From: Psammoneis japonica
Taxonomy: Eukaryota
Length of the DNA stretch: 54,573 nt
Assembly: GCA_008632985.1 (NCBI GenBank)
Contig: QPGO01000324.1
Span: 1 to 54,573 of the forward strand
Direction of reading: 5' to 3'
The notes below the pieces were generated by a model. It was not told the DNA's origin. It ran no database searches and saw only the letters and a list, made by a program, of their open reading frames with translations. This document shows, in pieces, positions 1-25,437 of the stretch (position 1 is its first letter; every line of letters starts with the position of its first letter). The position numbers and the translations under genes are program-made.

Positions 1-1028
1 AGGAGGATCGTCGCGCGGCGGTTTGGCGTTGCACTTCGGGCACGTCTTCTTGGTGCACCCCTCGAGACCGCAGCCAAAGCAGTGCTTCGTCTTCCCAGGG
101 TTGTCCGCAGTCGAAAGATTACTCTCGGGTAGCTTGGCGACCAATGCAGGCCACTCCCCGTCCTTCACGAGTTCGTTGTGTTGCTCCTGAATCCACGCAA
201 TGATGCCGACCGGTCCGAGCGTGTTGCAATCGCTGTCGGACACGATGTCAGCAGGATTCTTGAGGCGGTGCTTGCGTTCCATGGCCTTGACGTCGTCGAG
301 CTTGTTGTAGACTCGCCGATTGAAGTGTTCAGAGGACGTAGAGGAGATCTTGTGGAGCAGCTTGGAGCTTGTGTTCGCCGGAAGCGCGCAGTCGGTCTGC
401 ATGATTTTCACGATGCGAAGAGCTTCGGTGGCAAAGTCCGTGCAATCCTCGCCGGGATGGTTGACCAAACTAAGGTCTTCCAGCTGCTTCTTGGCCCAAC
501 ATCGTCGAGCTTGATCTCGTCGTACTTGGCATCATCGGCAGCTGCTTTCCGAACCGTGCACTCATTCACGAGATCGGTCACAGCAAACTCGTGAAGATGA
601 TCGAAGACACATTGAACCGTGTCGTCGCTGTTCTTGACATGGTAGAACGTCTGCTGACCGTGGGCTTCTACCAGATCTCGAATGGTCTTGACGAAATGGT
701 CCTTGTCAAGTTCGTTGATGGGACCGTCCAAAACCTCAAGTCGACCGTTGAACTTGGAAGTCATTGCGGAAGCTTCTTGATCGTGGAGAGATCGTTCTGT
801 CGAGTCGAGAGCCTTGGGATGACGGCACTGAGAGGCGAGTCGGTGGGTTCTATCGTTGGATTGTTCACACCTGTCGTTGAGTTTGGAACCACCAATGTAA
901 ACCCCGTGGGTTGGGTGAATTCCACCACGCAACGGCTTGGTTGGAGGCGGAGGAGCGGTCGCTGCGGCATTGGCGGCCATTGCGTTGGCAAACGCCTTCG
1001 CCAGAACAGCCGGATCGATGGCAGCCAT
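1..1028 (-). mobile_element. Ty1/Copia-type gag (diatom CoDi-like), frameshifted near 495, running off the left edge
   Basis: ORF 408-1028 continues after a frameshift in a frame reading WAKKQLEDLSLVNHPGED...GPVGIIAWIQEQHNELVKDGEWPAL...CFGCGLEGCTKKTCPKC. This gives gag-like LxLxx(Y)PGE and WPAL motifs plus a zinc-knuckle-like CxxCx4(H/Y)x4C. Family call from recalled motifs. Confidence 0.7.
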
Positions 1029-3659
1029 GATGGAGAGTGCAGTGTGGGAGGTTCTTGTTAGGGTGAAGATGAGAGAAGCGAGAGAGACTTGCTGTTTCCC
1101 GGGTTTGCTTCAAAATCAAAACCGAAAGCGTCCGTGACGATGACTCGGTCAGGAGCTCTCGTCAACGTGTAAACTTGGGTTCTACAACCAGTCGAGATGC
1201 AGTCCTGCAGCTGGGTAGGATGGATGAGACCTCGGAGGTTGGCAGCAACATGAACAGCACAGAGGCAAACAGACGCTTGTTCAAAGTCGTTGTCTAAAAA
1301 TTGTGACGAATGTCGTTGCTTCTGTTTGAATCGATTTTGTGATGAGCTGGTTGTTTTGAAGAGAAAATCTCAGTCTGGGTTGTGGTCGTGAGATGCGACC
1401 AGAATGACGTTGAGTCGTGACTGAGGCCAATGTTCTCCGGTGGGTTCACGACAAATCCATGGTGGCCATGGACACCCTGGACAACCACTCTGGCAAGAAC
1501 ATGACACAGGCTGGGGATGCCATCCAGAAACTCAGCAGTGAAACCAGGTGCACTTGCAAGACCTGTGAGCACCATTTGCACAGCAGGGTCATGCAACGAA
1601 GATGCAGACCGACTGCAAAGTTGCCATTGCTTGTCTTGAATCCATGGTGACTGCTGTGGAGGCTGCTGTTGAGATGTGCATCTCTGTGAGGGAACTCTTG
1701 CAGGGCTCCTTCAGGACTGTGAGGCCACTGCTGAGAAGCCCGCAGCAGAGCCACCTCCTGTTGACACATCCAACCTTGTCACCCACCAGGCATTGAGAAT
1801 GCCCTCAGCAACCACTGTGATGGTGTTGACACTGCTCTTGTCATGCACAAAAAGGAAGTTGATGCAGTCACTGTGGAGACTGAGCAGTCTTTGAAGGAGG
1901 CTCGCACTGCACATGCCATGGTCGAGGCTGCCCATCATGATGTTCACTCAGCCAGCAAGTCCATGGCCAAGCCCCCTGCAACACCTTCTGCTCCTCCTCC
2001 TCTGCTCTCAACTTCCACATCTGGCACTGACTCTGTCATCCTCACCAAGTTGACCACCATGTTGGAAACAATGGTGGGCCATCTCCATTCTGCCCCCCAG
2101 CTGATGATCCTTCTGCCTCCAGTGCATCCCGTGTTTTGTCCATGTCATCCTCAGAGAAATGTTGCAATGCAAAGAACTTTTGTGAAACTCCTGGTCCTTT
2201 CCTGCCCTCCATGGACAACCCCATTGCCATTGCTGCATTTTTGAAGTCAATGTGCAACCATTGTGTTGAAGTCGGCATTCCTGCCTGGGACCAGGAGGCC
2301 CCCTGTCTGCTGATTGTGCAGATGTCTGCAACCCAGCAATGATCAGTGCTGCCCATCAATCCAAGTGCATTGTGGAACTCCACTCCAGACTCTCTCAGGA
2401 CAACATCCTCCCAGATCATTCACTCCTGGAAGGATGGACAATGTCTGCATTTGCACCCATGATGGATCGTTGCACTGTTCTCACTCAACTTGCTCAAATC
2501 GGTGTTTTGGCCACATCTGGCATCCAGTCAGCCACAACCTTGACATGGGGGGGGGGGGGGGGGGGTGATCTGCACACATTTGTGGCCGAGCACACACCAT
2601 GCTGTTCCATGCAGGATGTTGAAGCCAATGCTTTGTCCACACCTGTGTCACCAAAGCAACATTCACTGGCACTTCTTCAAGCCTCACCCAAGGATTTGCA
2701 CTTGACGGTTGACTCACTTGTGGCCCATCAACAACTTGGTGACATGGATCTGATGGTTCTGTGTGCGCATGAACAATGTCTGCAACATTTTCCATGCTGA
2801 ACCAGAGTGACACTTGTTGGCAATTAAAATTTTCACACATTGTCTGCCTGACATTTCTGCTGACATTCATCACATGTTGATTTTGACTCTGTTCTTGACA
2901 CTTGTCAAGTCAGAAACAACTGAGCTGTTTGTTGCTTGTTTCAAGTCACCAGTGTTGCTCATTGTGTTCACACATTTTTAAACTTGTTAAGTTTGAATGC
3001 ATTTTCCCCTTCTCCCTCCATTTGCTGGCTGTCTCCCATCTGCTTTGCTCCATTTCTGCCAAATCTGTCCTTTTTTCCCACCGCACACACCACAAGCTGT
3101 CTTCTGGCACAAAATCTGCCAACAACAATGGCACACCTGCCCCTGTCATAATCCACTCTGTCCTGGTCAGATGTCTTCCAACAACGACCAGTGTGCTCTC
3201 CCGTGACATTCCCAAAGGTGTCCCCAGTGTTCTTCTTTCTTCCATTGTGGCCTTGACAATGCATCTTCCTCTCCCAGTCACTTTCCAGCTCTTTTGGTGC
3301 ATCAGGGCCTGTCAACCATTCCCTTGATTCAAGCACCAAAGGATTCATGTCCCTGTCTCTTCATGATGGCAATCCGTTGTGCCTTTGTCCAGATGTGCCA
3401 GCAATCAAGAGTTTCAGTCCTCCACCCACGGTGATCTCAAACTCCTCCAATGAACTGCTGGGGGGGAGGGTTCCTTTGACAATGACGTTGTCAACTCTCA
3501 TCATGTGCCTGTGTCAGAAGAACCCAGCATTGGCAATTCCCACCCAGTGATGGTGTCTGCTGCAATGACGTCCTTTTCATGGGGAGGAAGAGTTCAATGT
3601 TCTCTCAGCACAATGTTCTCTGACATCCTCCTCCCTCCCCAAAGAGGACCCCAATGACA

Positions 3660-6300
3660 ATGGTTTGCACTGCTTTGGTGCACTTGATCTGCAGGAGATG
3701 GAAGAAGCTCAGCTGTTGGAACCTCCATGCATTCATGAAACCAATGCCACCAAGAATCTTCACCCGGCAGAAGAAGAGTTGGTCTTGATGATGAAGAAGC
3801 ATCATCTCTCCCATGGCTTGCACAAGTTTTTTCTTTCTTGGGCTGGATGTGCCAAGGAGAGTGATGGTGAGCACATGTCTCTCTCCTGTTCTGCCACCTT
3901 GCAATGCATGAAAACCAAGCATGCCAATCATGTGGGCCCAGAGCCCATTCATTCCACAGTGCATGTGGAACCCGAGTTCCCCCCCAATGCATGTGCACCA
4001 CCAATTTTCCTTTCTGCATCATGTGAGAAGGGTGCTCCTTGACCCCCAGGTTGTCCAGTCTTGTCAGTGGTCGTGCTGTGAGAAGCACTGCCCCAAAACT
4101 GATGAGCACATTCATGACTCTCTTAGCACTGGAGACTGGTGGAAGCAAGTGGAGTTTGATCTCCAATCTTCCCTTGGTGAACTGGGCAATGGCTGCTCCT
4201 CTGGGTCACACTTTGTTTGCCCAGCAATGCTGTTTGACGATTCCACCATTTACGACAACACAGGTTGACTGCAAGCACAACCTGTTCTTGTGACCTTGGG
4301 CAGTTTCAGTGATGAAGTGTCATTGCAGCAGCCACTCCCCTTGGTCAACACTTGGAATGTGCCACCGCATCCAAAGACAAGCAACAAGTGCACCACTGAC
4401 TGCCTGTCAGTCAAAGAACAGACAGGAGATGCACATCAAGCTCTGCCACAGCACCTTGTGGGAGATGTTCACAGAGTTGCTTCAACTGTAAAAGCAAAAG
4501 ACTGGCGCTCCCCCATTGTGGTGCCATCTCTGGGCTTTGTCCATCTCCATTTTTGATTGTGCATGAGGCTGGCATTGCAAAAGGTCATGATGACATGGCT
4601 TGTCACTGAAACTCCCGCTCAAGCAACATGTCCCAGATGAATGGGGACTGTGACATGCTGCAGTGTTTTGGTGACAATCCCTTGTTTAGCTGCAAGTCAA
4701 CTTGGTGAAACAAGAAACCATCCAGGGGATGGTGGAGGCTGCCACAATGGCCATGGAGGAAAGGCACCATGGCAAGGTGACTGCAGCTCACAAACAGTGC
4801 AAGGACATTTCTCAGCACCTGGTGTGTCCCATGTTTTGGGATGTCCCTCATGGCAAAGGCAGGCATGGCACATTTGGCATGCTCCCCTGTGAGCTGTTGG
4901 ATGCCTTGCACTTGGGCGATTAGAAGAATCTGCTTCATGCCTTCTTCAACCTGCATCAAGTCCCAGAAAACGTGTTGTTGTGGTGTTGTGAACATGTTGG
5001 TGAAGGGGAGTGCTGCACAATGGACAACCAACCATCTGTCACATTCAAGGAGCTCCTAAAGCTGTTTCACAAAGCTGAGTTTGAGAGATGCTTCAGAGTT
5101 GTCACACATGCATCCAGGAGGCAAAAGTGATTGAAAAATGCCAAAATCTCCATTTAAGAATTGAGTCACTTTCCAGACTTGTCTGTCTGGTCAAGAGCAT
5201 CCAGGTTTGTTGCTTGCAACACTTGCTGCAATGAAAGGCATGCTTTGAAAGGAAGACAACAGCCTTGAGCCACTGGAGAGTCACTTTGCCCACCTCATGT
5301 TCATGTCATTGGGATTGGATGTGGCATTGTCCAAGCCCTCCCAGCAAGGAAAGCTTTCTTGCATGTCTGCAGAAATGCGCCCTCAAGCACCTCCAATTGT
5401 TTCAATTTGTGGTTGGCCCATTCAGAGAGCGCCGTTCTTGTTCCGGACATTGCATGTCCAAGTTCCATGGTTTTCTTCATTTCCTTTTTTCATTCATCAG
5501 TGCGGCAATGCCAACAACTGTGAGGACCTGGTGGTGAGGAAATCAGAGAAGCATTTGCTGGAGGCAGGTTGGCTCCATGCACAAGAAGATGAGGCTCCTG
5601 TGCCCCACCGACAATCAAATTGTGGATGCACAGACCCTGTTGCTGCATTCAAACCTCACATGAATCCATCATGATGGCCACCCAGGTTGCAAATGCAGAT
5701 GACAACAATGCCACATGGTCTGTGAAATGTAGAGACAAACAGTTGCAGACACCATCCAGTCCATTTGTTCCAGGCAATTGTGGCAATGAGTGGGTGACAT
5801 CCTTGCTGGATCATGCAAAAAAATGTTGAGACTTCCCCATTGATGTTGTGAACTGTTGCTTTGGATGTGATGCTCTGGGGCCAGCCACTGATGAACATGA
5901 CATTCTAAGATGCCATCCAAACTTTCACTCCCATCCATGGAAATGAAGGAGTTGGCATGACTGCGCTGTGGTGAAGTGGAACGATGATGAAACAAGCTGC
6001 TTGGTTGCAGCTCATGTGTTGTTGTGGGTGACCTTGGAGAGCAAAACAATGGAGCGCAAATCCACAGTTTGTGCAACCCATTTGCTCTGGAGCTTCACAC
6101 CAACCAAAGATTCACTCCTGACCTTTTTTTTGGTGACAAGACAGAGTCAGAAATTAGAGTTGTTGATGCTTCTGACACATTGTCCACTGACTTTATTCTT
6201 CCTTTGACTGGGTCATCCCAAGACCCATTTCCTGACAGTTCAGAGGATGCCACTTGTTTTGTGGTTGTTCCACCAAGAATTGACTGGTGCAACATGACTC
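3660..6300 (+). pseudogene. Plavaka-like (CACTA-related) transposase relic
   Basis: Colinear motifs across frameshifts: STGDWWKQ..FVCPAMLFDDST..QPVLVTLG (~4130-4300), GHDDMAC (~4585), FWDVPHG..GTFGMLPCELLDALHLG (~4830-4920), LSGQEHPGLLL (~5185), SKFHGFLH..CGNANN (~5460), ILRCHPNF..WHDCAVVKW (~5900-5980), FVVVPPRIDW (~6260). Confidence 0.65.
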
Positions 6301-9300
6301 TGTCTTTGACAGAGGAACATTTGGACCTTGAACATTTGGATGAATGCTGGCAAATTAATGCAAGTTCCATTGACTGGACATCCCATCTAAATCCCAAATG
6401 TCTGTCCATCACAGTCCAATGAACAAGAGAGTTTTTGTGCCCATTTCACATGACTTGAACAACCTCCTTGTGTTGTTTTGTGGAAAAGGAAACTTTTGGC
6501 ATGATGTGTTTTCTTGCTGTCATCTGGTTGCACCTGACTTCTGTGTTGCCAACACCACTGTGCAGTGGAAATGGCAGCACATCAGCCAGTGCAATGCCTC
6601 TGTCCTTGGCCAGGTCCAGCATCTGGATTTTGTTGTCAATTGTTTCCTTTCACAAATCAACTGTGTTGTTCTTGGGGCTCCGTGCTGTGCTGCACTTGAT
6701 GGCAGAGAAAGCTTTGGCATCAATTTCAACAGGGTCCAAACCATGGCTTGACATGTCAAAGTCTCCCACAAGTGCAATTTCCTCTTGCCATCCAAAAGTT
6801 TGTTCAACACAGCTTCTGGCAGCAGCCAGCCCTCTCCACATGACAAATGGCAAACAAGATTTGCACAACCCAGAAACAAGTCATCACAACAAATGCCAAG
6901 CTCTTTTTCCATTGCAGATTTCCCCAACAAGAGTGGTGGCAATGTCACATGAGACTCTGCCAGTGCTGCCAAATTTGTTTTGTTCTGTGGCTTGCCCACA
7001 ACATGACACCGGCTTGTCAACACTCCCAAGTCAACACCCGGAACTTTCCCTTTTTTGTCAAAGGGCCACACACACACTCAAGTTCTTCATGTGTTTGTTC
7101 TGGGTCATGCTCCAACACAGTGGTGTCAACTGCAGAACTTGGCAGAGAGAGTTTGCTTGGTTCTTCCATTTTTGGCAAAGTTTGCCTTTGACATTGAAGG
7201 GTGTGGTGCAATGGAGATAGAGGCAGAGATGGAGCACAGCTCACCAATGACATTTAAGGGTGTGGGGGGCAATGGAGATGGAGATGGAGAAACAGTGATG
7301 TGAGTTGCAAAGTGCAGTCTCATCAATGCAGTGTTTCATCATGTGCCACAAGTGTGTTGCAAAAGCTGCACTGATTTTCCTGTCAACAATTGATTTCCAG
7401 ATTGATGGCTGCAAGCTTCATTTGCTTGTGTGCAACTCTCATTGAGACAAAACAATTCTCATTCTTTTTTTCTGCGCATTCTTGCAAAACAACTCTTCAG
7501 GTTGGAACTCTCTGTTGCCACCTTGTTGGTTGGGGAAAGACCATTTCTTTGCAGTGAGCAAGAATGGAACCTTGCTGGGCCAAGGTGCGTTTGATGTCTC
7601 AGGAAGATCCAGGAGGGAAGGTTCCAAGAGGAAGGTTCATTCCATCTGCAAGGTTCAAGTTGCATCACAAACATTGCCAATGCCACAATGTTGGCAAGCA
7701 CAATTGAAACGAAAGGTTCAAGTTCCATCACAATCATGCCAGAACAATTGAAACATGCAACAGCACATGCTGAGTGATTCAGAGCTGATGCATGTCTGTG
7801 CAATCTCCAGCTGAAAAGGGAACAAATTCTCTCAGAGGAGTGCAACAACCTAGATCAATTGCTGCAAACATGTGTTGCACAGACACAGCACACATCAGGG
7901 AGAGTCAGTCACACCTCCACCCACTGCTCCACTTGCTGCACATGGACAAAACCAGCATTTCCCAGGAGACCACGTTTTCATTGAGAACTCCATCAGTCAC
8001 ATGCTGACTTGCAGATCAACTTCAGCAGACAGGGCTGTGGCAGTTGATCATGCTTCTCCTGGCTGTGTGCACTTTCAGACATGCAATGGTTGCAACACCT
8101 GGCACCATCCATCAAATGTCAGACTGCTTGCTCAAGCCAAGGCAGACTCCATTTTTTGTGAATGTTGCATGAGATCACAGCCCGATTTTGAGCAAGACAA
8201 AGTGCACCCCACAACTGCATCCACCAAACACAATGGACTGATTTGTCAAATTGGCTGAGGATGGTCAATGGGGTGGGATCCCAAATTGTGGCATGTTGCA
8301 TTGAACAGTGACTGATTTTGGTCAGCATCTTGTGTGAGCTCTTTGGCAAACCTGCACTCATGGACAACAGCCCGTGACCAACTCACTGTGGATTCCATGG
8401 GCTCCATTGCAGTCAAATTCTCAACCATTTTCATTCTGTTTTCTTCAAGAAGGAACTGCCAGGCCACTCAAAAGTCACCAATGAACAAAAAATGAAGAAG
8501 AACCTTGGTCTCTCAGGAAATCCTCTGTGGATCACTTCTCTTTGTTGGCATTTTTTCTCTTGCGTTGTGCCATCATGTGCAACTCTTGTCCATCAATGAT
8601 GGCAAAGGGTCCACATTCTTGACGGTGCAATTCTCCCTCCCCTTTTCTTTTAATTTGACATCTTTGACATCATGGGCAGTTCACCATCCTTCTGCTTTCT
8701 CAAAAAGTTGTGCATTGACAAAGCACCGGAAATGTGTCATGATGGAATGGTGGGTTGGGAAATTGCCCCATTTGCCGTGCCCATCCACTGTGCAGTTGCT
8801 GCATTTTTGGAAGTTTTGTAAATGATGATGGAAATTCATGCAGCTGCCTTCATGTGGTGCAAGGGTGTCAATCCTTTCTTGTGTTGTTCCAAAATCAGTG
8901 TGGCAGCAAATGATGTTTCTTTCAAAAAGGCGTGTGCAATGCTGGTTCTCTGGCAGTTTCCTGTGAACACACAACAGCCAGGCAAGAGTGTGGTTGTCTT
9001 CTTTTGGATTTGGAAACCTTGTGCTGCAATGACAACTTGGTTCTGCAGTGCAGACAACACAGTGCTCCTGTTTGCATCGATGAATGTTTGCCATTGAGTG
9101 CACCACTGTTTGTTGCACAGTCTTGATCAATTGGAAAGAAACAAATCCGAAAACCCTTCTGCAAGGTCAGTGTGCTCTTGCTGACACCTTGTCAAGAATG
9201 AACAAGTTAGAAATGTTTGCTGTGTTGTTGTCACTCCCTCATCATGTTGTCTTGTTGAGAATGCATTAAAAGCACATTTGTCAACCATCAACAACGAATT

Positions 9301-10064
9301 GTCAATGACAGAAAAAACCAAATTCGCAAATCAAACAGCCAGCACACAGCTCAACCAATGCCACCAAGTCAAGTCATGCCCATGCAGCAAGTGCTGCTGT
9401 TGCATCTTCACTCTTCATCCACACAATGGCAGCAGAACAACCATGGACAAAACAAACCTGGACAAGTCTCCCAAGTTAGCTGTCTTTTTGGATGACAATC
9501 TTGATGTGCCAAGCCTTGGCACCACAAACTTGTCAAAGGATTTGTTGATGCCATCTCAATGCAAAAGAAATCACCAGCATTGGAGGACATCATTTGCCCT
9601 GCCAGGTGCCATTCATGTGTCAACAGATGGCACAACTTCCTCCTCCCCTGAAACACCAGTTGTCAAGGAACCTCCAGCAACATCTTCCCGATTGGAAAAC
9701 ATGCACAAAAGAGAAGCCACAGCCCTTTCTCACGGAAGCTCCCATGTTTTGTGATCATCCTAAAACAAGAAAGCGCTGTGCTGAAACTCCATTTTTAGAG
9801 GACAACTGCATGTTTTTCATTCAAAGCAACCAAAAGTGAAAGTGGACAAACCCCTTGTGGTGGACAACACAAAGCTGGAAAAGACATTGGAGGTGACACA
9901 CAATTGGTGTCATCCGGCACTTGTTGCACTGCCACAGTCTGTGTGCAAGGAAGAAATCAGTCATTTGGGCTTGGATGCTTCCACCTTGCAGGAGACGATA
10001 GATGAGCCATTTGAGTCAACCAAGAAAAGTGTGAGTGCAAAGGATGCAAAGGAATGGTCTGCAA

Positions 10065-10120
10065 AAGGAAGGAGGGAAGGAAGGAAGGAAGGAAGGAAGG
10101 AAGGAAGGAAGGAAGGAAGG
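10065..10120. repeat. (GGAA)n microsatellite
   Basis: About 13 near-perfect GGAA units are directly visible. Confidence 0.95.
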
Positions 10121-13100
10121 CCATTGAGATGTCCAGGAAATGCCAAGTTCATTGTGGCAACCACAGCAATCCAAGGTTGAGTGGCCCTGTCACACACTCC
10201 CAGAAATGTGGACATGGGCAGGTTTGGGTCAGTCAAGCCAATTCAAAAGCATGCAGAACAAAAGGACAAGGAGATGGAAGAGTCTGCCAGAGGTGCATCA
10301 TGGAGAGCTTGGGCAAGGCAGCACTGAACACATTCTGCATTGGCTGGCCCATTTATGAGGAGTTGACAGCACGTAAAAAGAGGTGGTGGGCAACCACCAA
10401 CAGGCTTCATGGCTTGGCTAAAGAGTTGCTCAATGGAGAAGAAAGGCACTGCTGCTCCATTGTGGGTGAAAAACCACACACCACCCTCACCATTGCAGCT
10501 GGGTGTGTGCTGGTGGGGTCACTGGCATTCATGTTGACACAAACAATGCATCTGTGGGATGAAGGGGATCACCGGACTTCCATTGCATCCTCACCGACAA
10601 TGCAAACATTGCCCTCCTTGTGTGTGTTCCAGCATGCAAAGGTGTGTTGTGACCAATGTTGGTTTTGCAACGGGCAAAAACCATGACTTGTTTTGTGCAG
10701 GATCATTGCATCATGGAGCACTCACCCATGCAAGCCAATCAAACAAATTGCTCAGTCCCAAGCAAGAGTGGATTGGCAATTGCAGCAAAAATGGGAAATG
10801 TCTGTTCCTGGCTTGGTGCACAAAGCAAAACTTGCCAGTGGTGCACACAATTGATGAGGTGTGCCAAAAATGCAATGTGGAACCTCGTCCATTCATGACA
10901 AAGACAGGCAATGGACCAAATCAAATTCAGAATGAGAACAGGAATGAATGGCAGGATTTCAGCAGTGCAGGTGCCAACAAGGATTGGATCCATCTGCACA
11001 AGAAGTTGGAAGGGATGGAATCCCTTCACAACTGTGGCGAGGAATGCAAAATCTGGCGACATTGGGACAGGCAATTGCTGCAATGACAGCACACTTTGTG
11101 GGCTGCAAATGCTGACAACACATGAGGTTGCTGCAATTGGAACATTGCAAATGGTTGCCACCAAAACACATCAAACTCTGGCAGATCCATGAGCCTGGTT
11201 GGACACATCTTCATTGTTTTCCACAGAAACATCTTGCTCATCTGTGTCCTCATGCTTTCCAACTCTTCTTCCTGTGACACACTGTCATCCTCTGGCATGG
11301 GTGTGGGGAAAGTCACTTCTTCCAATGGGGGGACCGGGTTGCTGTTGCCTGTTCCCTGGTTGTGTGACAAAAAAAATCAAGAGTTGGTGTGACTGGAACA
11401 TCCATCACCAGAGCCAATGAACCTTGATTTGCAATGGCAGCTGGTTGGCTTGGTGCCTTCATCTCCAAATTGTTGTTGGACAAAACAAAGGCAAATCCGC
11501 ACCCTGAATCAGGGTTCCCAGGTTTGTTCAGAGTGCCATCCAATGCCCTGTTGGAGCTGATGACAATGTTGCAACGATTCATGAAATGTGCAATGTCCAG
11601 GGCAGCACACTTCTGCTTGGATTTGACCAAAGGGACATCATTGGTGATGAGGTGTGTGCGCCACTGTGCGCATTCTTGAGCGACATCCTCAGTGGTCAGA
11701 TTGGCACTTTCAGGTGAAGGTGGCACACCATCCATGTTCTCTGCAGGCTGTCAATCAGATTGTCCTCATGGTGGTGGAACACATTGGTGAGGAGAAACTT
11801 TACAGCAATGAACTGGGTGAGTGCCTCCTGCACAACACTCTCCATGCAGTGGGCCACAGTTTGCCCATTGTGCTTGTCGCAGCATTCAGCAACTTTGGTG
11901 TGGCTCTGCTTGCAGTCTTTCATCAGTGTTCAGGCATGACAAAGGCAGACGGCAGTGGCAAGAGGCAGAAATGAGGCCACCCACAGAGACTTGACCATTC
12001 ATCCAAAGCAGCATGCAGCGTGAAGATGAGCTGCATCATGACAATGCACAACGGCACTGTTTTCCTCATCTGTCAATTCAATGCCAGTGGGTGGGTCATT
12101 GAACAAGTCAACAAGAGTGTGCTGGCTTGAAAAAGACAGACAAGCCAAAAACACATCATGAGTGACACAAAAAAATGGGAGAAAAGAGGGAAAGGAAGGG
12201 CATCACCTTGAGCACCGGGATTGGAGCCACACAGACAGAGCAACATTTTTTGAACATGCTTTCCAGGATGGTGGGAAACAAGGCACTCCCAGCCTTTGGC
12301 AGCAGAGTGTGATTGATTTGTGTTTGAAGGTGGGGTGCAAAGGCATTTTGTTCTTGATTCATGCATGTGAGGGCCGACGGGCCAACCTTTTCCCAAAATC
12401 TTTGACAAACCTCAGGTTTGTTGAATTTGTTGTCAACCCGGTCCTGGTCAGCTTTCAGGTTTTTTGGGGATGCATGGTCCCAAACCATCATTGCGATGGG
12501 ACACTCGGAGTTTGCACCAGCATCCAGGAGCAAATGGCAATTCATGGGTGTTCCCTGTCTCTTGTTTGGATGGAAACCCAAGAGCAAACAGAAAAGCATG
12601 CCCCACCTTTGAGTTGCCAACTTTCTTCACAACAAGGTCATTCTCCAAAGTTGTCATTTCATTGGCATGAAGGGTCTGTTGTTGATGTTTCTGGAGAGAG
12701 GTGATCTTCTTGTTGGTGGTGGAAACTTTGGCTGCACAGGCTTTGCACTTTTCCTCAAGCTGCTTGCACATCTTTTTGTTTTGGTTTTTGCAAAGGCTGT
12801 GCATGCACCAGCAAAAAAAAACAGCCACATTCTGCACTGCTTTCCAGTCAATTTTTTGGGCATGCTTGGAGGAGGCTTGAAGCAGATGGGAGTTTTGCAA
12901 GATGGGGCTTCATGGCGCTCCTCAAGAAATTTGAGATCTTCATCTGTGACTGCAGGGGAGCAGTTCTCCGACACATGATCAGAGGTGTCCACTTCATTTG
13001 TTGATGGATCTGCAGCAGCAGGGGCAGATCTTGCATCACCAGCTGGTGGAGCAGCTTCAGACAAAGAGCCTTGATGTTGCTGAGGGCCTGTCCAGGAGCC

Positions 13101-14526
13101 TTGTCAGGGCTGCCTGGGAAGAACTCAACCTGAGGCTTGATCGCCATGAGCAGCACCTCCACCACAGCCACCTCCACCATGGCCAGCACCTGGTTGGTTG
13201 GTCTTGTTCCATCTCCTTGGTGGCATGGTCAATGAACACACAAAATGACAGAAGGGTGTTGATTGAAGTCCCGGAGCTGGGGAGTGTGCAAGCATGAGTG
13301 CAAAAATTTCATCTTGACAAGAGCCAATTGATGTGACAAAATGAAACTTTTGTTAAATGCATGCATGACATTGGCAACCAAATGATTCATTAAAGTTGTT
13401 TCAGGTCATTCAAACATCAGCAATGTGGTGCAAACATGGAATTTAAACCAAAATTGTTGCTGCAAAAGCAATGCAGATGGGAATCAACTGACAGACAGGT
13501 GTGTCATTTTGTCAAAAACATGAATTGTCACTGCCTCACAAGACAAAAAAATGCAAACACAGGTTGCATGCAGCACCACACAATGAAAGCAGTGGGGACA
13601 GGCAATGGCATTGTGGAGGGGACAGAGGAAAATGTGGGACACAAGGTGAGAAAGAGGGAACAAGTGGCAAATGCATGGAGCCAGGGCGAACGATGCACAC
13701 AACTTGCAGTTGCAAAAATCTTTGCAGACAGACATCCAGACTCACAAGCAAAGCCAAAATTGATGACAAGAAGTGGGGAGGGTGAAAAGGTGAACAGCAA
13801 CAGCACATGAGACGTGCTTGCAAGAAACACAAGACACACAAAAATCTGATCATTCGCACGAGGTTTTCTCTGATTGCAGGTGATGCTTTGGCCAACCAAA
13901 GAGGAGGAATGTAAGATGGATTGTTGCAAGACAATGTCATTCCCAGATGTGGATGATTGAGGAGAGGAGAGCAACAATGGTTGCAAGGGAGAACACAGGG
14001 GCCAGACACCCACCGTGCAGGGGCTGTGAATGATGACAGAAACTGGTGCAATGCAGGAGAAGAACAAGGATGGGAAGAAGGGAGCATTTGGCATTCAGTG
14101 TAGAAAAAACCAGACAGAGCATTTGTGAGTCAGACAATGTGAAGCACACAGCCAATGTGCAACCAGGTTAACAAGACAATTGAACATCATTGTTGTCAAA
14201 GACAAACAATCTCAAAAAAAGGTTGCCAACACACACTTGTTAAGACAGAAACAAATGCAAGTGATGAGTTTCATTGACTGTGTTTTTTCACTTGGAAGGT
14301 CAGTTTAAGCATGGACAGAGAATCAAAAATGTTGTTAAAATGAAAAGATGTGAACAATTGTCAAGAATGTGTGCACAATGAGACTGATTTTCATCAACCA
14401 CATTGTCCTGCTTGGAAGGTTCCAACAATTGTTAAAATGGCTTTGCACATGATCAACAAGCACTTGTTGAGAATGCAGGATTCTTGTCAAGCAAATGTGA
14501 GTTCTGAACAAGAGCAACAACATTTT

Positions 14527-15880
14527 CCAGATGAAGGCATTTCAGAATTGGTGGACCCACCATCTTGGCTGTCCTCCCTTCCCCATTGGACACGTCCTCC
14601 CAGTGCACCAAGCCCTGCAAGGCCACCCAGAATCTCCATGCTTGTGGGACATTCACGTCAACAAGATCATGCAGTCTTCATCTGTCCCTTTGCCCCACCA
14701 CCCATGAACCATGCATTTGCAGTGGAGTCGTTGATGGCAAGTCTGTTTTTCTCTTGAAACAGGAGGTGGATGATTTCACCATGGCAGTTAACTCAGAAGC
14801 CACCTGTCACAAGATGTGTGACATCTTTGATCTCCATCTGAAAGGAGAAAAAATCAAATGCCAGGGATTGCTCACCCAATTTCTTGGTTGTGACGTGGAA
14901 CAAACTGGGGGCTGTGTTTGGCTTCACAGCACTTCATGTGTCAAGCACATCCTGGTGTACTGCCCCAACCTGTCTGTCAGCAGCTCTGACTTCCATGGCC
15001 CTGTGACACCAGAGACGCCCATGCCAGGCAATTCTGACCATGCAAAGCTTTTGGATGAAGTTCCCACTCTGCTGGACTTTGCCTCTGCCAAGTCTCTCCA
15101 GACTGCTCAAGGGTTTTTGTGCCACCATGCCATTGGTGAACTCATGTGGGCAATGGTGACTGCCTGAGTTGACCTGAGTTTTGCCACAACCAAACTCAGC
15201 CAGCTCAGCTCCAGACCCCAGCCAGCTGCACTGTGAAGGCATCAAGCATGTGCTGCAGAATCTGCAGGCACACCCAGATTTTGGTTTGACCTGCTGGTGG
15301 ACTCAACCCTGCCCTGCATTCTTGTTTGTGCCTCCTCTGCCCCTCTTGCGGTCCCTCACAACCATGCAGAACTGCGCGTCCGCATGCCGAGTCACCCACG
15401 GAACTCACCAGCTGCAAGGGCTCCAACTGGTCTGCTGACATCCACCACTGCTGCACTGTCAGTGGCATTGCCCACCTGCTTGCGGGCATGGCCATCATTT
15501 GGAAAACTTGGGTTCAGTCCACAGTGTCCACTTTTTCCTCAGAAGCAGAGTTCATTGCGGCATCAGACACTGGTGAGATGGCTTTGCATTTGCACTCTGT
15601 TCTTGATGAACCAAATGTGCCACTGACACAGGCTGTGCTGACGTATGAAGACAATGTGGCCTCTCAGCTGATGGCCAAAGCCAGTCACCCCACCCATCAC
15701 ACATGGCACATGATGGACATCAGGCACTTTGCCCTGCAGGATTGGGTGGAAAGAGATGTGGTGTGCCTTGACAGAGTTCCCACTGTGGCCAATTGCCGCG
15801 ACACACTCACCAAGAACTTAGTGCAGATTTCATTCTTTTGCCATCTTGACATGCTCTCTGGTCACATTCAACCTGCGCAT
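14527..15880 (+). mobile_element. Ty1/Copia pol relic (reverse transcriptase + RNase H)
   Basis: WWTHHLGCPPFPIGHVLPVHQALQGHPESPCLW, PTTHEPCICSG, QEVDDF, AIGELMWAMVTA*VDLSFATTKLSQ, SSEAEFIAA, TYEDN, DIRHFALQDWVE, DTLTK. Contains stops and frameshifts. Confidence 0.9.
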
Positions 15881-15882
15881 TG

Positions 15883-15961
15883 NNNNNNNNNNNNNNNNNN
15901 NNNNNNNNNNNNNNNNNNNNNNNNNNNNNNNNNNNNNNNNNNNNNNNNNNNNNNNNNNNNN
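15883..15961. other. Assembly gap (79 N)
   Basis: Run of N followed by poly-G. Confidence 1.
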
Positions 15962-16006
15962 GGGGGGGGGGGGGGGTCTTTTGGTGATGGCATCATTCCA
16001 CATGGA

Positions 16007-16489
16007 TGCAGGGATCATTGTCACCACCATCATCCCCTGCTTCCTTGCACATGCCCCATGCACCTCCCAACAGGCAATGAAATGCAGATGCGTTGCAAAG
16101 TGCTGTTGTTGAAATTGTGAGCCAGTTCATTCTGGAAAAAGTAAAATCATGTGAACAGGGAACCTTGTCAAATTTCAAATTCCCGTTCATTCAAATTTTG
16201 CATCACATCAAAGCCATTGCTGTTCACACTGTGGATCATGCAGGTCAGGCCACCACATGTCTCTTCCACAAGTGACGTCATCATGATGGGCTGCATTGCC
16301 ATTGGGGGGCAGGCAATGGGCCGCTGCATTTGCACACATCAGTGCTCTCCAGGCACTCCTCTGAATTTGCCTGTCCTCCTTGGATTGTGCTTCCCAGGTG
16401 TGCAAGAGCAGTGCCATGCTGCTGAATGCCAGAGGCTGGTGCCTGGTGCATGCCTCACCATGTTGTCCAGTGAGGATGCATGTTGCACA
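16007..16489 (-). repeat. 3' LTR of the Gypsy element
   Basis: Aligns colinearly with 20819-21282. On the minus strand it starts TGTGCAACA just after a purine run (GGGGAAG, 16490-16496, PPT-like) and ends ...CCTGCA. Confidence 0.8.
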
Positions 16490-19400
16490 CTTCCCCATGA
16501 CCCAGGACACCAATTGTCAGGATGTGGTGCCAGTGACAGGGTGTGATCTGTTGCAGGTTGTGTGTGTCTGTCAGCACTCTGTTCTGGATGCACAGCATGC
16601 TGTTGTCATGTGTGCAGACAGCTCTGGCTGGGCCTGCATGACTGCTGTCAGCATCACATTTTGACTTTTGTTCTTGGTTGACAAGAGTGCCAATTGTCAA
16701 ACAGTGTGTCAGAATTCTTTTGTTTCTCACTTTCATGCTTGTTGTTCAAGTGAACAAGCTTCTGCTTTCTGCATCACATCTGAAGAGCAACTGCACAGGA
16801 CCAGGACATGTGGTTGCATGTGCCACAGCATGTTTTGCAAAAACTGCAGCAGATGGAAGGCTTCTCCATGGGTCATCCTCATCCAGCTCCACATCCTGCG
16901 CTGAAAATGAGTGTGCCACATTGCCAAGCATCTGGTGTGCATGTTCCACTGTGGCACTCATGCCCCTGTGGATTGCACTTGCTTGTGTTTCTTTTTGAGT
17001 GCCACAACCATTTTGCATCATCTGGCTGAACTCTGCCATGAGTTCTGTTCCACGGTCATAAACAACCTGTGCTGGCCACAGGCATCTGCATGGTCCCAGG
17101 GGGCTTGTTCCATGATGTTGCTGCTGCATCCACACATTTTGCAACACTTTCTTGATCTCAAACCATCCAGTTGCCGAGTCAATCATCATGGTCATGGTCA
17201 CCCACAACCACAAGGTGTCTTTGCCACATCTTTGAATTTTTCAGGGCCCTGTCACATCCATGCACAGAGTTTCCCAAGGAATTGTCTCTGTGCCACCTTT
17301 TCTGGCAACTTCCCACAATGCTGCATTCTGTGTTTTGTCTTCTGGGGGCATTGTTGGTCACACTCAATGCATGCAAACTGCAGTGCAGACCTCATGCCAG
17401 GCCAATGGAGAAGTGCTGGGGGCAACAGCCATTTTTGCATGTGTCTCGCTGGGATGACACAGTTGTTCATGGCACCATTCAGCTCAGGAGGGAACCTGTG
17501 ATGACTGTGGGGGGTGCAACAATTTTGTCCTCATGACACTGTGTGGATGGAGCAGCAGTTGTGCAAGTCCTCAGATCATGACAGCAGGCACTTGTCCTGT
17601 TGCTGCTCTTTTGGATCCACTTGAAGCCAGCAGGCAACAACATCAACTGCACTGCATCCGTGCTGAAAGCTTTGTGCAATGGATGAAATGACAGCATCTC
17701 TCAAACCAAGACTTCCAGATTACACTTGGAAGGCAAGCCAGTTGCCAGTTGAAGTCAGCTCAAGTTGTGTTGTCCTTTGACATGCCGCAATTCAGGGCTG
17801 CATTCTTCTTTGCACATTGGCCTCCAGCGCATCATGTGTTTGGTGTTGAACACCTTGCAAGCAAGATTTTTGTGATCAGTGCACATGATTGCATGTTGAC
17901 CAAGGAGAATCACACAAAGTTTTTTCAACATCTCCACAATGGCAAGAGCAATTCTCTCTCCATTGTTGTGTGGTTCAATTGCATGCTGTTGAGCTTTCTG
18001 CTGCAGAGCACAACTGGTTTTTTTTGTGTGATGATGTCACTGCTCTAAGTTGACATTAAGATGCATCGACATGCATCTCAAAAGGTTTGCTTGTTAAAGT
18101 CTGGAGTTGCCAACAAGACATCTTCAAACAGTGCTCATTCGACAGTCAGTCTCTCAGATGCCTTGTCTTCAATGGATGTCTAATTCCAACTGACAGCCCC
18201 ACTTCTTGTGCAAGTCTCATGAGGGGGGCCAAATTTTCAGAATGTCCAAGCCATGCCTCATGGCAGCAGTTTGCCATGCCCACAATTGAGTGGAGTTTGC
18301 ACTTGTTTGCAGGCTTTGCAGCATGTTCAATGGCTTTGACTTTAGTGGGTGTTGGTTGCACACTTTCTTGGTTGACCAAACATCCCAAGCACTCCAATTG
18401 GGTCTGACACAAAAGCAAGACTTCATTGCATTGACTTTCAGCCCTGCCTTCTTGACTCACAACAAGACTTCTTCAACTTTGTGTGGAGGTGGGTTCACAG
18501 GTGCCTTTCATCACAATGAGGAGGTCATCTGAGTGTGTTCATGTGAACAACAGATCCTCAAACAAGGTTGACATTTTCTCCTGAAACTTGTCTGGTGAAT
18601 TGCACAGTCCCATGGGCAACACCTGCATCTTGCGCTTTCCCCATGAGAGGAAAATGAGCATGCAGAGCTTCTTGCTGTCACTGTCCAACTGGATGTGATG
18701 GTGCACTGCACTTGGATCCAAAGATGTGGCCCACACAAGCCTTCCAGCTTTGGCAGCATGTCCTGGATGTGAGGAATTGAACAAGGTGCTTGCTTTGTCC
18801 TCTTGTTCAGCTCCCTGAGAAATCATTGACAAAGCCCAGTCAAGCTGCTGAGTCTTTCTTCAGTGCAATGAAAGATGGAGCTGCCCCCACTGGGATCAGT
18901 CAACATGTTTAAGAGCACCCACACATGCAAGGCACTCTGCTTCTTCATGCAGCATGGCTTTGTGCAAATGAGGTGCTTTGTGTAGATGTCCACGACATGG
19001 TTCTGCATCCTCCTCAAGTTGGGTGTGGCAGGGATCTCCTTTCCAGTGTCCCAATGTCCCATCAACAAACAGGCACTCATGTTGCTTCAATGAGTCCAAC
19101 AGCTTCGCTTGTTGAACACCACCAATTCCCATTGACCCTTGCATTTTGTCCTCAAGGAATGCTGGTGTGCACTTCCTTGGCATCCAAAATGCATGAAATT
19201 TGGTCACTTTCTGACACACCAAGGGCTCTGGATCTTGAAGAAAGAAGGAGGTTTCTGCTGCAGCATCTGTGTTCCTTGTTGGCACTTCTCCATCAACTGT
19301 GGGCCACTCAACAATCTGTTTGGAGAAGACTGTGTCAATGTGCTGTGTTGCCAGAATGTCACATCCAATGATCGTGTCACAATTGCCCAACTTTCTGTCA

Positions 19401-20818
19401 TGTGGACTGTGGACTTTGTGTGCAAGTTCTGCAGTCTTGGATGACTCTGGCAACTTGATTTTTATGGTGCAATTGTCAGTCATTTTAAATGAGCCTGCAG
19501 CAGTGCTCCAGCTTGTCTTGGCCATCACCTGGCTTTGCAAACACTTGTGGCATTGCTTGTCCAGCAGAGTGCTTGCTGCTGCCAGCGCCACTGTCTGGCA
19601 GTGCCCCAATTGTCTGAGTCTTGCCTTTGCTGTGCTGGGCATTCATGGACACAAACAAGACAGGTGTCAAGTGAGTCTTTTTAACCTGTTTGTGGGATTG
19701 GCCCACAACACAAGTGTGATGGCATGACAAATTTTCATTTGTGCATTCATCCAAGGTGTTGAAGCTTCTGGCATTGCACCAGCCTCCTCCTCAGACATCC
19801 ACTTCAGAGTCATCTTTGGAGTTGCTGATGTGCAGATTGTGGAAATGACTGAGCTCCTCCCTGCATTCCGCCTTGCACTTTTTCTTTGCATTGGAGATGT
19901 GGGTCTCTGCTTTCTTCTTGACAACAGAGCTCAACTCTTTCTCATTGGTCATGTGGCCACACAGTCAATCCCGTGTGGCATGCATGACTTCTGGGTCTTC
20001 TTCTGTCTCATGATCAATGACTTGTTGTTGTCAGCTCTGCAGCCCTGCTTGCATGTAGAACCTTGGCACTTTGGCCCAGGATGCCCCCTCACCCCACATC
20101 CTCCACCTGCTCAACTCACTTGCACAATGAGACAAATTTGGCTGTGGTGTGCGCCAACATGTCAGAATTCTGCAGCACCAAAACAGGTTGCATGGCTCAT
20201 CATTGGCAATGACTCCAGAGTGTCTCCACCATCCATTGCAAGCAGAAACTGAGGGATGTGGCAATTGATCTCAACTGCCCTCACGACATGCTTGCATCTC
20301 TTGAACACAGCCGGCTTGCACATGAAACATCACAGACAACACTTTTGCAGTGGGGCCTGCCACCCTGTGTGGAAAGATGCTCTCCATGATTTTTGCCACA
20401 CACACCTTGAAGGTGATGTCAGTCTTGGCATCCTGTGCATCAGCAGCACTCTCAAAAATTGTTGGAGCAGCACTGCCCTTGAGAAGCCTGTGAACAATGA
20501 GTGAATGTTTTGTGGGTCCTGCAGCAATGTTTTGCCCCTGGAACAAGTTCTCGGTGCTGTGCTCAAAAACAAGCCACTTGTCCCACGTTCCTGCAGAAAA
20601 GTGTGACAAACTCAGCTCCCATGTGGAACTGTTGGGAAATGCAGGATTGTTGTGCAGCTTGTGCATCTGGTGCTTGCCCTTTTGAAGCTCTCCTTCTTTT
20701 CCAGGTGCGCAAACAGAATTGGCAGTTGAGCCCACTTCTTCATGGTTGGTTTCACAGTTGTTGGTCCTGCCAACATGTCACAGTCTCAGCTCTCATGGAT
20801 TTGCAACCTTGTGCACCA

Positions 20819-21282
20819 TGCAGGAGCAATGTTTTGCTGTGCCCCATGCACCCAACAGGCAATGAAAATGTGGGTGTGGTGTCACAAAAGTGCCATTGTG
20901 AAAATTGTGGGCCAGCTCATTTCAGAAAAAATGGAGAGTGTGTGAAAAGGGAATCTTGTCAAGTTCGCACTCATTTGGATTTTGTGTTGCATCAAAGCTG
21001 TCACACTGCTTGCATTGTGGATTGTGCAAATCAGGCTGTCATGCACCTTCCACAAATGATGTTGTCATGATGGGCTACACTGCTGTTGGGGGGCAGACAA
21101 TGGGCCAGTGCTGCTGTGCGCATGGATTCTCCAGGCATTCCTCTAAATTTGCCTGAGTTGGAGAGCCATGTCCCAGTTGGATTGTGCTCCCCAGGTGTGC
21201 ATGAGCAGCACTGCACTGCCATGCCCTAGAGGCCAGTGCATGGCCTTGCCATGTTGTCCAGAGTGAGAATGCATGCTGCACA
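20819..21282 (-). repeat. 5' LTR of the Gypsy element
   Basis: On the minus strand it starts TGTGCAGCA and ends ...CCTGCA, followed directly by TGGTGCACAAGG (PBS-like, 20818-20807). No clear target-site duplication. Confidence 0.8.
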
Positions 21283-22645
21283 GGAGCCATTGCCAAGGTG
21301 GACACACAGAACACACAGCTGGCCTCTGCCATCTTGCTGTCAGGGTTCTCCAAAGGCTGGGCTCCACCGCCTTGGAGTTGCCAGCCAAAGTGATGGCAAA
21401 TGCCTCCAACAGCTGCTTTGACTGCAAGTTGGCAGCAGCAGCCTTTTTCCCTCTGTCATCTGTTGCCTCTGGCTTGTGGCTTTGGAAAAGATGTGGGGTG
21501 CAGCCCTGGACACCCTTCTTGACCTTGCACATTCATGGGCAACAAGTTGAGCTGCTTTGGCCATGATTGGGCACTTTGTCTTGCCATGTGTTTTTGTTTC
21601 TTCAGCAGTCACAACCAGCCCCAGTGCCATGGGGGCACCCCACATTGCCATGGTGTGGGTGGCTGCAATGTTTTCTGATGACACACCCAGCGGCAATTTG
21701 ACCAAGCACTTGCTCTCTTCAAGAACAGGACAGACAAGCATGGTGGAGCCGTGGGTGCCAAGTTGTCCACCAGCAGCGGGTTTGATGAGAGGCTGGCATG
21801 GACTCAGAGCATGGTTGTCCTGCAAACATGTTGGGAAGAGCCTCTGCCTTCTGAGGCTGGTGACAACACACCAACAGCGGGGCTCAGTGCGCACTTGTTT
21901 GCAAGGAGCTGGTGGCAACAAGTGAGAAGTTGTTGGGCCAGACATCCAGTGCAGCCATGCAGCAACCAGATCAATTGTGTCCTCAACAATGTGCGCAAGT
22001 GTGTGCTGCGTGCCTCCATGCTTGCCAAGCACTTTGCCCAGGTGAAGCATTTTTTCTTTCTTGTTTTTCCCCAAGAGCAGGGTGCTGCTGTCCACCAAGA
22101 TGGAAGAGAAGATTGGGGGAGGGGCAGAATCAAGACTTGAAAAGTGCCACAATCTTGTCAGGAATTTTGCAAGAATGCTGTTGCCATGATGAGATGACCG
22201 TCACTTGCAGGTTCTTGTCTTTGCGAGGAACGCCGCGCACTTGTGCAAGCAGCAGCTGTGATGTTTGATGTTTGCAAGCACACCAAGATCACAAGATCAT
22301 CAATCGGTCAGCGGTCAGCAAAAGAGGAGCTGCAGAAAGAGGACGCTACAATGCCATTTTGATGTGTTGCTGTCAGGTGTCGTCGTGACAAAGTGCCGTG
22401 TTTTCTACTTTCTGCTGGTAGAGTCAGCAGTTTCTGTAGCAGGCAGGAGTGGCTACATTTCCAAGTGCGTAACGTAAGCAAGAGGTGTGGCTCTGGCGCA
22501 GCTTCTGTGGGCCACAGCGCGCGCGCTAAAAAGGAACGGTGCTGGTGCTGGCTACATACAGTAGGCTGGTGGCTACGGCTGGTGGCTGGTTTTCTTTGCG
22601 GATTACCAACCTCGCGGTGTTGAAGCTGGACTCTAGTTAGAGAAG

Positions 22646-25292: not shown

Positions 25293-25437
25293 TTTGACGA
25301 GTTATCTTTTTGTGTTGTTCGCACTGGACTCGTTGTTTGAGAAATGCTGTGATGCTGTGGCCTCCACGCGCCGATCTGTGCCTTTTTACGGGTTCACTGG
25401 GTTTCACGGTTCACTCTGGGTTCACTCCAAATATGTA

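Follow-up and report, generated by a model that had tools for sequence, protein, structure and literature searches.

The DNA analyzed here is a 54,573-nucleotide stretch of the diatom Psammoneis japonica (assembly GCA_008632985.1, contig QPGO01000324.1), referred to below as the window. It contains two islands of decayed transposable elements (TEs) that have lost nearly all of their TpA dinucleotides (TA), are poor in CpG (CG), and are rich in TpG and CpA (TG and CA). We consider it very probable that two independent mutation processes, both ending in TG/CA, have acted on these silenced islands; this judgment covers the processes and not the enzyme behind them. One would be the ordinary decay of methylated CpG to TpG/CpA. 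The other would consist of TpA-specific A:T>G:C transitions on integrated DNA, affecting both strands alike, outpacing CpG decay, and ending within a few hundred bases of neighboring genes, with a rate set by one flanking base so that TTAA is nearly spared. This second process may be a host genome defense of the kind reported for the chlorarachniophyte Bigelowiella natans, guided by repressive chromatin.

Dinucleotide counts define the two blocks (Table 1). Island A has 63 TA, 164 CG, 2448 TG, and 2425 CA in 21050 bp, whereas about 825 TA are expected from the frequency in the adjacent genes. Its dinucleotide frequencies are 0.0030 (TA), 0.0078 (CG), 0.1167 (TG), and 0.1156 (CA), compared with 0.0392, 0.0569, 0.0721, and 0.0738 (TG+CA 0.146) in the gene stretch between the islands, measured over 22347-47813. 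Island B, counted over 47814-54573, has 18 TA, 63 CG, 848 TG, and 678 CA, and in both blocks TA makes up 0.3% and CG 0.8-0.9% of dinucleotides versus 3.9% and 5.7% in genes. In 1-kb bins of the islands (1001-21001 and 48001 to the end), observed/expected (o/e) ratios are 0.00-0.11 for TA, 1.46-2.27 for TG and CA, and 0.04-0.43 for CG (at most 0.31 except in bin 1001), whereas bins 22001-47001 have TA o/e of 0.35-0.79 and CG o/e of 0.69-1.19. AT, AA, and TT are kept while TA is lost, with AA and TT o/e of 0.94-1.52 in the islands. An earlier reading made from the sequence alone had described the TE DNA as almost free of TA, with none in 1297-2824, and this is exact: a TA at 1295 is followed by the next at 2825. 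The extent given there, 1297-22346, stands for island A but left out the second block of the same kind (~47650/47814-54573), and its description of adjacent genes as normal in TA holds for the housekeeping genes in the 25 kb that separate the islands, to which the depletion does not extend.

The summed frequency of the four pyrimidine-purine (YR) steps is 0.2432 in island A and 0.2420 in genes, purine-pyrimidine step totals show no change, and the GC contents are 0.483 and 0.477. The loss of TA (-0.036) and CG (-0.049) balances the gain of TG+CA (+0.086). Because the YR sum and GC content are equal in island A and genes, transitions within YR steps turned TA and CG into TG and CA, and GC content is stable because GC gained at TA offsets GC lost at CG. 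Decay of 5-methylcytosine (5mC) in CpG accounts for the CG>TG/CA half of this pattern, with an island CG o/e of ~0.1, but it cannot remove TpA. Repressive 5mC is described as marking repeats and silent genes in diatoms (PMC12344493), which fits the CpG half.

One element of island A could be assigned to a class. At 16052-21282, reverse transcriptase (RT) is followed by RNase H between direct long terminal repeats (LTRs), as in Gypsy-type retrotransposons, and the interior matches the Pfam families RVT_1 (E 5e-4), RT_RNaseH (E 2.4e-5), and RT_RNaseH_2 (E 4e-4). A phmmer search with the degraded RT against 1.84 billion representatives gave 4003 matches at E<=1e-3 (best 4.7e-42), and tblastn of 139 intact homologs gave 216 high-scoring segment pairs at 16-19 kb; a word-indexed protein search with the degraded RT returned 932 candidates, none of them at E<=1e-3. 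An integrase was not recovered in the element. The sequence-only reading had also named Copia, Plavaka, and Helitron elements. Its Gypsy assignment is upheld by Pfam, the LTR pair, and phmmer, whereas the other three classes and their motif readings could not be confirmed, since no Pfam family was found at E<=0.01 in the supposed Copia (12001-15882, plus strand), Plavaka (3503-6999, plus strand), or Helitron (48900-53999, minus strand) region. These regions are too decayed for their class to be confirmed. The end of the translation in the 12002 frame bears a resemblance to a Copia RNase H, a putative reading only.

Conserved codons of the Gypsy element reveal the direction of change. The 139 relatives counted as intact, with a Tyr content of at least 2%, were compared with the window by tblastn, and we kept columns in which at least eight relatives align and at least 60% agree, which left 219 codons. 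None of the 11 conserved Tyr columns has kept Tyr: five are TGY, four CAY, one CGC, and one ACT. Arg is kept in five of 13 conserved columns, the remainder being TGY (three), CAY (four), or CAA (one), and of the 195 columns for all other residues 132 are unchanged. In a MAFFT alignment with 100 intact homologs, the 10 majority-Tyr columns hold four His CAY, three Cys TGC, and one each of TGA, CGC, and ATG codons. These alignments show that, within one coding strand, TAY was converted to CAY or TGY by changes on either DNA strand. The sequence-only reading had proposed exactly this coexistence of Tyr>Cys and Tyr>His, now seen in 9 of 11 Tyr columns, and its separate loss of Arg codons through CpG decay agrees with the eight of 13 Arg columns that are TGY, CAY, or CAA.

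The LTR pair dates these changes relative to insertion. Comparison of the window with itself gave only three repeat pairs, and the LTRs are the sole source of a copy-versus-copy spectrum within it. Between the two LTR cores we counted 83 transitions and 16 transversions. The alignment pairs 101 YR steps: 72 agree, 21 are TG/CA swaps, and in eight one copy still has CG or TA. Since a retrotransposon inserts with identical LTRs, the 21 swaps that now separate them arose after insertion. A TG/CA swap requires two changes between the copies, but only one in each copy from a shared TA or CG, and by this count about half of the ancestral LTR YR steps would have been TA or CG. CG alone is insufficient to explain the swaps because only about one YR step in four is CG in genes (0.0569 of 0.2420).

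To place the window among related sequences, we scanned metagenomes with a five-sequence alignment and fetched 80 related loci. Twelve of them are copies of one related family, 80-92% identical; each copy was scored against the majority base of the others over 1564 reference positions with a majority. Transitions per site reach 14.1% at T and 15.5% at A of TA, and 11.5% and 9.6% at CG, compared with 2.0-4.1% elsewhere. Majority-TA sites read TA in 490 cases, CA in 100, TG in 106, and something else in 24, i.e., single transitions make up 206 of the 230 changes. With strands folded, A>G occurs at 221 of 1494 TA sites (14.8%), but at 81 of 2387 AA (3.4%), 61 of 2075 CA (2.9%), and 42 of 2004 GA sites (2.1%), an excess at TA with an odds ratio of 5.9 (P 4e-62). 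Both DNA strands are equally affected (106 TG versus 100 CA). The copy-versus-majority spectrum therefore shows an excess at TA over the other A>G contexts (14.8% versus 2.1-3.4%).

The same spectrum bears on a possible polymerase origin. TA is a hotspot of Pol eta in antibody hypermutation, and error-prone repair synthesis of the Pol eta type, recruited to heterochromatin, would produce A>G at WA motifs. We regard this as very improbable: AA is not raised (3.4% versus 2.1-2.9% at GA and CA), only 24 of the 230 TA changes are other than single transitions, and island AA/TT o/e stays at 0.94-1.52. The A>G mutator guessed at by the sequence-only reading thus retains a deaminase as the leading guess and loses its Pol eta-type variant, with AA not raised and 90% single transitions.

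Individual copies differ widely in how much TA they have lost, from 4 to 89% of sites at 1-3% background divergence. The copy L047 lost 49 of ~55 TA sites (89%) at 10 of 599 background transitions (1.7%), and L077 lost three of ~72. Loss of CG amounts to 12-36% per copy and does not track TA loss. The TA process is thus independent of CpG decay, and it is faster. A strand-symmetric TpA to TpG/CpA process separate from CpG decay, as proposed before, is borne out by the spectrum and by CG loss that is unlinked to it. A picture without any dedicated system, in which TpA is unstable and old unrepaired heterochromatin slowly decays in a context-dependent manner, would suit the age of the window elements, whose LTRs diverge strongly at non-YR sites. 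An equilibrium of TA 0.003 and TG+CA 0.232 would need a loss-to-gain ratio of only ~77. Yet a loss of 89% in one copy at 1.7% background next to 4% in a sister copy is episodic and copy-specific rather than clock-like, seven of the 80 related loci are depleted in CpG and have kept TA, and the rate reported for B. natans is 1000-fold over background and differs between lines; we consider slow decay improbable.

Editing of retrotransposon transcripts by an ADAR- or ADAT-like enzyme before reverse transcription deserves consideration, since RNA adenosine deaminases typically edit an A that follows U (10.64898/2026.01.13.699255, main text). Its main prediction fails on several grounds. The 21 TG/CA swaps between the LTRs are possible only after integration, which excludes the bulk of the changes; sense A>G (106) and T>C (100) are equal in the 12-copy family; a single coding strand carries both Tyr>Cys and Tyr>His changes; and non-coding edge DNA is TA-free too. 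The LTR comparison rules out RNA editing before reverse transcription as the main source, and we give it almost no credence. The LTR swaps and the equal changes on both strands support the earlier proposal that the mutations arose at the DNA level.

The surviving TA sites disclose a flank rule. We expressed TA survival as the length-normalized ratio of blocks to genes for each tetranucleotide. Survival is 0.74 for TTAA, 0.26 for TTAG, 0.21 for CTAA, and 0.07 for CTAG, and at most 0.07 for all others; no ATAT, ATAC, or CTAT is left in the blocks. An additive one-neighbor model, in which the rate at the A of each strand is set by its 3' base, fits all 16 contexts, with fitted doses of 0.32 for A, 1.19 for G, 2.08 for C, and 2.58 for T. 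Loss in the 12-copy family follows the same order (TAT 0.221, TAC 0.198, TAG 0.100, TAA 0.082). The rate order is 5'-TAT > TAC > TAG >> TAA, with TTAA almost immune. An additive and sequence-specific rule of this type points to an enzyme and is hard to square with a base-calling artefact.

What chemistry this enzyme would use is a separate matter. Tentatively, and with somewhat less than even confidence, we propose that adenine in DNA is deaminated to hypoxanthine by a candidate enzyme of the deaminase fold. ADAT2/ADAT3 and TadA target an A that follows U or T, as here, which makes theirs a candidate chemistry; their known substrates are tRNA loops, and a role on DNA would be putative. DNA editing has been claimed for amphioxus ADAT2 (as cited in the main text of 10.64898/2026.01.13.699255), and an ADAT2-like DNA adenine deaminase is proposed there by the B. 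natans authors.

The flank rule can equally be read as T being attacked at a rate set by its 5' base (A>G>C>>T), and because the data are symmetric a thymine-based chemistry has to be weighed. A TET/JBP-type dioxygenase or a similar enzyme would modify T in 5'-RTA-3', and the product, e.g., 5-formyluracil, would mispair with G and give T>C. Oxidized thymine miscodes, and hydroxymethyluracil in dinoflagellates favors TpA. However, a literature search combining 5-hydroxymethyluracil with diatoms gave only a dinoflagellate review, so that no support was found for diatoms, and glycosylase removal of such bases should leave additional transversions, whereas 206 of the 230 changes are single transitions. 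We therefore hold thymine chemistry to be unlikely, though less so than slow decay, Pol eta-type repair, or RNA editing, and we favor adenine deamination over it.

The remaining related loci show what either process does alone. Across the 80 metagenome loci the median TA o/e is ~0.75 and the median CG o/e ~1, i.e., intact relatives, which might have been equally short of TA, are not TA-poor. Seven loci (L015, L026, L004, L080, L078, L046, and L074) have lost only CpG, with CG o/e of 0.12-0.29 and TA o/e of 0.62-0.92, so CpG decay alone leaves TA intact. The hosts of these seven loci apparently methylate TEs without the TpA process. Six further loci, including two of identical sequence, combine TA o/e of 0.06-0.39 with CG o/e of 0.44-0.67; they represent an intermediate state, with the loss of TA more advanced than that of CG. 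In one of the loci, L054 (positions 1-7801, identical to L056), TA per 500 bp drops stepwise from 40 to 12-24 and then 3-9, which looks like an island edge in an intermediate state.

The signature is also present in public protein records. Among the 150 best database relatives, 11 (ENA, NCBI, and JGI records; P0001, P0015, P0043, P0079, P0096, P0098, P0109, P0111, P0112, P0117, and P0145) are Tyr-poor RT proteins with less than 1% Tyr and 7-15% His+Cys. Their 56 majority-Tyr columns hold 23 His, 22 Cys, and a single Tyr. Arg, by comparison, survives in 29 of 45 columns, and the remaining residues in 478 of 608. One of the Tyr-poor proteins is encoded on a 115.8-kb NCBI contig. Metagenomes and public proteins together give sequence evidence that the signature may be widespread.

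These records also weigh against a sequencing or assembly artefact, such as platform miscalls of modified bases. Contigs from one read set (run X1, ~60x word depth) reproduce the TA-free island, and a 4523-base contig over 17597-22119 differs from the window at five positions. The ~60x read contigs agree with the window, platform miscalls are not expected to follow an additive flank rule that spares TTAA, and the signature recurs in unrelated metagenome assemblies, in ENA, NCBI, and JGI proteins, and, as the B. natans main text reports, among de novo mutations called from Illumina data. In favor of an artefact, the only run covering the region is possibly the source of the assembly; we nonetheless consider this explanation exceedingly unlikely. 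Among the matches listed, 12 differences of unique depth separate the island from the X1 contigs, six of them CG<->TG/CA, two TA>CA/TG, and four others, which is in line with both processes still running.

The islands have sharp edges at 1296/1297, 22346/22347, and ~47645. At all three, the absence of TA extends 150-500 bp farther out than the depletion of CG (1297-1450, 22199-22346, and 47645-48140), and CG in these intervals is at or near normal density. CpG decay is therefore not sufficient for the whole pattern, because there are loci that lost only CpG, CG loss in the 12-copy family is not matched to TA loss, and the TA-free edges have normal CG.

Position rather than copy number appears to predict the effect. 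The stretch at 20.4-22.2 kb is TA-free, yet it has single-copy depth in read-derived contigs. A multi-copy element with terminal inverted repeats (TIRs) among the genes is only mildly TA-poor, and copy number as such is thus no predictor, whereas lying in a silent island is. We infer that guidance would come from chromatin and not from repeat homology. The targeting proposed by the sequence-only reading accordingly holds for TE islands and is not supported for repeat targeting of a homology type. One contig variant of the TIR element carries TG for the CA of the window at 25745-25746, and other copies of it may have changed elsewhere in the genome.

Fungal repeat-induced point mutation (RIP) invites comparison, as in both cases transposons are crippled by dense transitions in a dinucleotide context with sharp element limits. 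RIP causes C:G>T:A changes, mainly CpA>TpA, creates TpA, and lowers GC content (PMC2621366, PMC7296669). Here TpA is destroyed and GC kept, so that the direction is opposite to that of RIP, as had been claimed, and unchanged GC content goes with removal of TpA. RIP is also triggered by duplication. Here the single-copy 20.4-22.2 kb stretch is TA-free, and the multi-copy TIR element has a TA o/e of 0.38.

A closer match is in print for B. natans, as described in the main text of a preprint from April 2026 (Mettrop et al., bioRxiv 10.64898/2026.01.13.699255), where TpA-only hypermutation was observed experimentally. In mutation-accumulation lines, 231 of 302 nuclear mutations fell in two integrated viral regions, 230 of these 231 were A>G or T>C, and all 230 lay on TpA. 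The rate was ~6e-7 per site per generation, a thousandfold over background, and was seen in 11 of 15 lines. In the genome, RT and DDE domains are enriched among 324 coding sequences poor in TpA, and there are 124 TpA-poor/TG+CA-rich clusters (10.64898/2026.01.13.699255). In B. natans as here, only TpA is hit, the products are TpG or CpA by strand, and foreign or silent DNA alone is affected. The process is not constitutive there (11 of 15 lines) and may not be here (4-89% TA loss among environmental copies), and TpA loss raises GC content, with the net GC of our islands unchanged by offsetting CG loss. The host is a chlorarachniophyte of the Rhizaria there and a diatom here. The targets there were a giant-virus insert (3.3% TpA) and a virophage insert (9.2%), while here the TE-remnant islands are saturated at 0.3%.

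Novelty has to be judged against this preprint. Our literature searches turned up nothing for diatoms, whether about the loss of TpA or about hypermutation of the A:T>G:C type, and a preprint on diatom TEs (10.1101/2025.10.24.684338) has no occurrence of dinucleotide, hypermutation, RIP, deamination, or TpA. The sequence-only reading had called the phenomenon undescribed, which stands for diatoms as far as the literature found goes and does not stand generally, given the close match in B. natans. What we report is a new occurrence in a diatom, saturated across TE-remnant islands, of a process known from one chlorarachniophyte preprint. The words CpG, diatom, TTAA, trinucleotide, and context are absent from the B. 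natans main text (10.64898/2026.01.13.699255), and for this reason the flank rule, the behavior at the edges, and the overlap with CpG decay are new here. New, then, are the one-neighbor flank rule with TTAA immunity, the independence from CpG decay and greater speed, the edge behavior, and the evidence from metagenomes and public proteins for a wide spread of the signature.

Several points count against this account. Outside YR steps, too, the LTRs have diverged (33 transitions and 16 transversions in 214 columns); the Gypsy element is therefore old, and the window alone fits a burst as well as long steady decay. The fast kinetics come not from this diatom but from the host of the 12-copy environmental family. 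In six copies of that family, TG and CA outcomes show no clustering (P 0.11-0.59); strand-coordinated runs, a possible mark of a single-strand deaminase, would blur over many summed events. The multi-copy TIR element, at X1 word depth of 400-760 versus ~60 (about ten times single copy), is barely affected, with TA o/e of 0.38 and CG o/e of 1.05. X1 is possibly the assembly's own source and in that case lends no independent support. A +1 preference with T best and A worst also differs from the tRNA target preference of ADAT/TadA enzymes, and we know of no ADAT/TadA counterpart for the order T>C>G>>A.

Mutational genome defenses are established for fungi (RIP) and animals (APOBEC/ADAR), and an A:T>G:C counterpart has been reported once, in the 2026 preprint. 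Its saturated end state in this diatom, together with the intermediate states in environmental DNA, means that the process is probably not confined to one odd species. Other hosts could be screened for by TA-poor, TG/CA-rich islands or by Tyr-free RT genes with His or Cys for Tyr, and the specificity (TAY good, TAA poor, TTAA immune) provides an assayable standard for candidate enzymes. The process also distorts TE annotation, TE dating by LTR divergence, and gene prediction, as the only stops left are TGA and most elements escape Pfam. Base-editing work, too, would take an interest in a natural enzyme that edits adenine in chromatin DNA. We also raise, as a rather doubtful extension, a shared and old chromatin-guided DNA adenine-editing defense in diatoms and chlorarachniophytes that would use a double-stranded DNA deaminase with 5'-TAY-3' specificity. 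Such a defense would act beside cytosine methylation and independently of it, would permanently erase transposons and viral inserts, and Tyr-free RT genes in ENA, NCBI, and JGI would mark its wide, unrecognized spread among protists.

Table 1. Features of the window, in positions of the 54,573-nucleotide stretch
Feature	Position	Strand	Basis or remarks
TE island A, TA/CG-poor, TG/CA-rich, decayed transposons	1297-22346		dinucleotide counts, YR sum
TE island B, second depleted block up to window end	47645-54573		counts, edges; TA lost from ~47645, CG from ~48140
Edge zone, TA-free with normal CG	1297-1450		0 TA (~6 expected), 9 CG in 154 bp
Edge zone, TA-free with normal CG	22199-22346		0 TA (~5.8 expected), 8 CG in 148 bp
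Gypsy 3' LTR	16052-16489	-	LTR-pair alignment
Gypsy-type LTR retrotransposon interior; protease, RT, RNase H remnants, frameshifted	16490-20839	-	Pfam, phmmer, tblastn
RT segment used as query	17960-19042	-	conserved Tyr codons now CAY/TGY
Gypsy 5' LTR (element orientation)	20840-21282	-	direct repeat of 16052-16489, 70% identity, 464 columns
Gene-dense stretch, normal composition, internal control	22347-47644		Pfam: PhyH, HSF, CIA30, RPN1, Sec62, SAC3/GANP, WD40, LRR
Multi-copy element with 117-bp TIRs, among genes	25437-26646		inverted repeat 25437-25552 / 26646-26530, 88% identity

To the left of island A, the fragment 1-1296 is CG-rich, with a GC content of 0.55, CG o/e of 1.14, and TA o/e of 0.21, and carries an unannotated open reading frame (ORF) of 206 aa (408-1028, minus strand). 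Spread of the TpA process into this left-hand gene was considered and rejected, as 15 TA remain in removable contexts (GTAG, CTAC) and there are 0 TTAA. Within island A, an (AAGG)14 microsatellite lies at 10065-10120, and a scaffold gap of 79 N at 15883-15961 separates an unclassified TE remnant from the Gypsy 3' LTR.

The tRNA scan of the window found no tRNA. None of the sequencing runs listed for the window was an RNA run. A second run, X2 (labeled "DNA?"), has no cover over 12000-22216. One of its contigs omits 79 bases between 28738 and 28818, in a manner like splicing, and the run may be RNA-derived. Near this position, ORFs of 236 aa (plus strand) and 223 aa (minus strand) overlap on opposite strands at 28786-29511, the 236-aa ORF having a weak, sub-threshold dUTPase match (E 0.033). 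The gene stretch is of diatom type: its RPN1 fragment shares 85-87% identity with the RPN1 proteins of such diatoms as Ditylum, Eucampia, Trieres, and Seminavis, with a top match of 89%, and the nearest Atlas cluster of the HSF protein consists mostly of Bacillariophyta (score 0.92).

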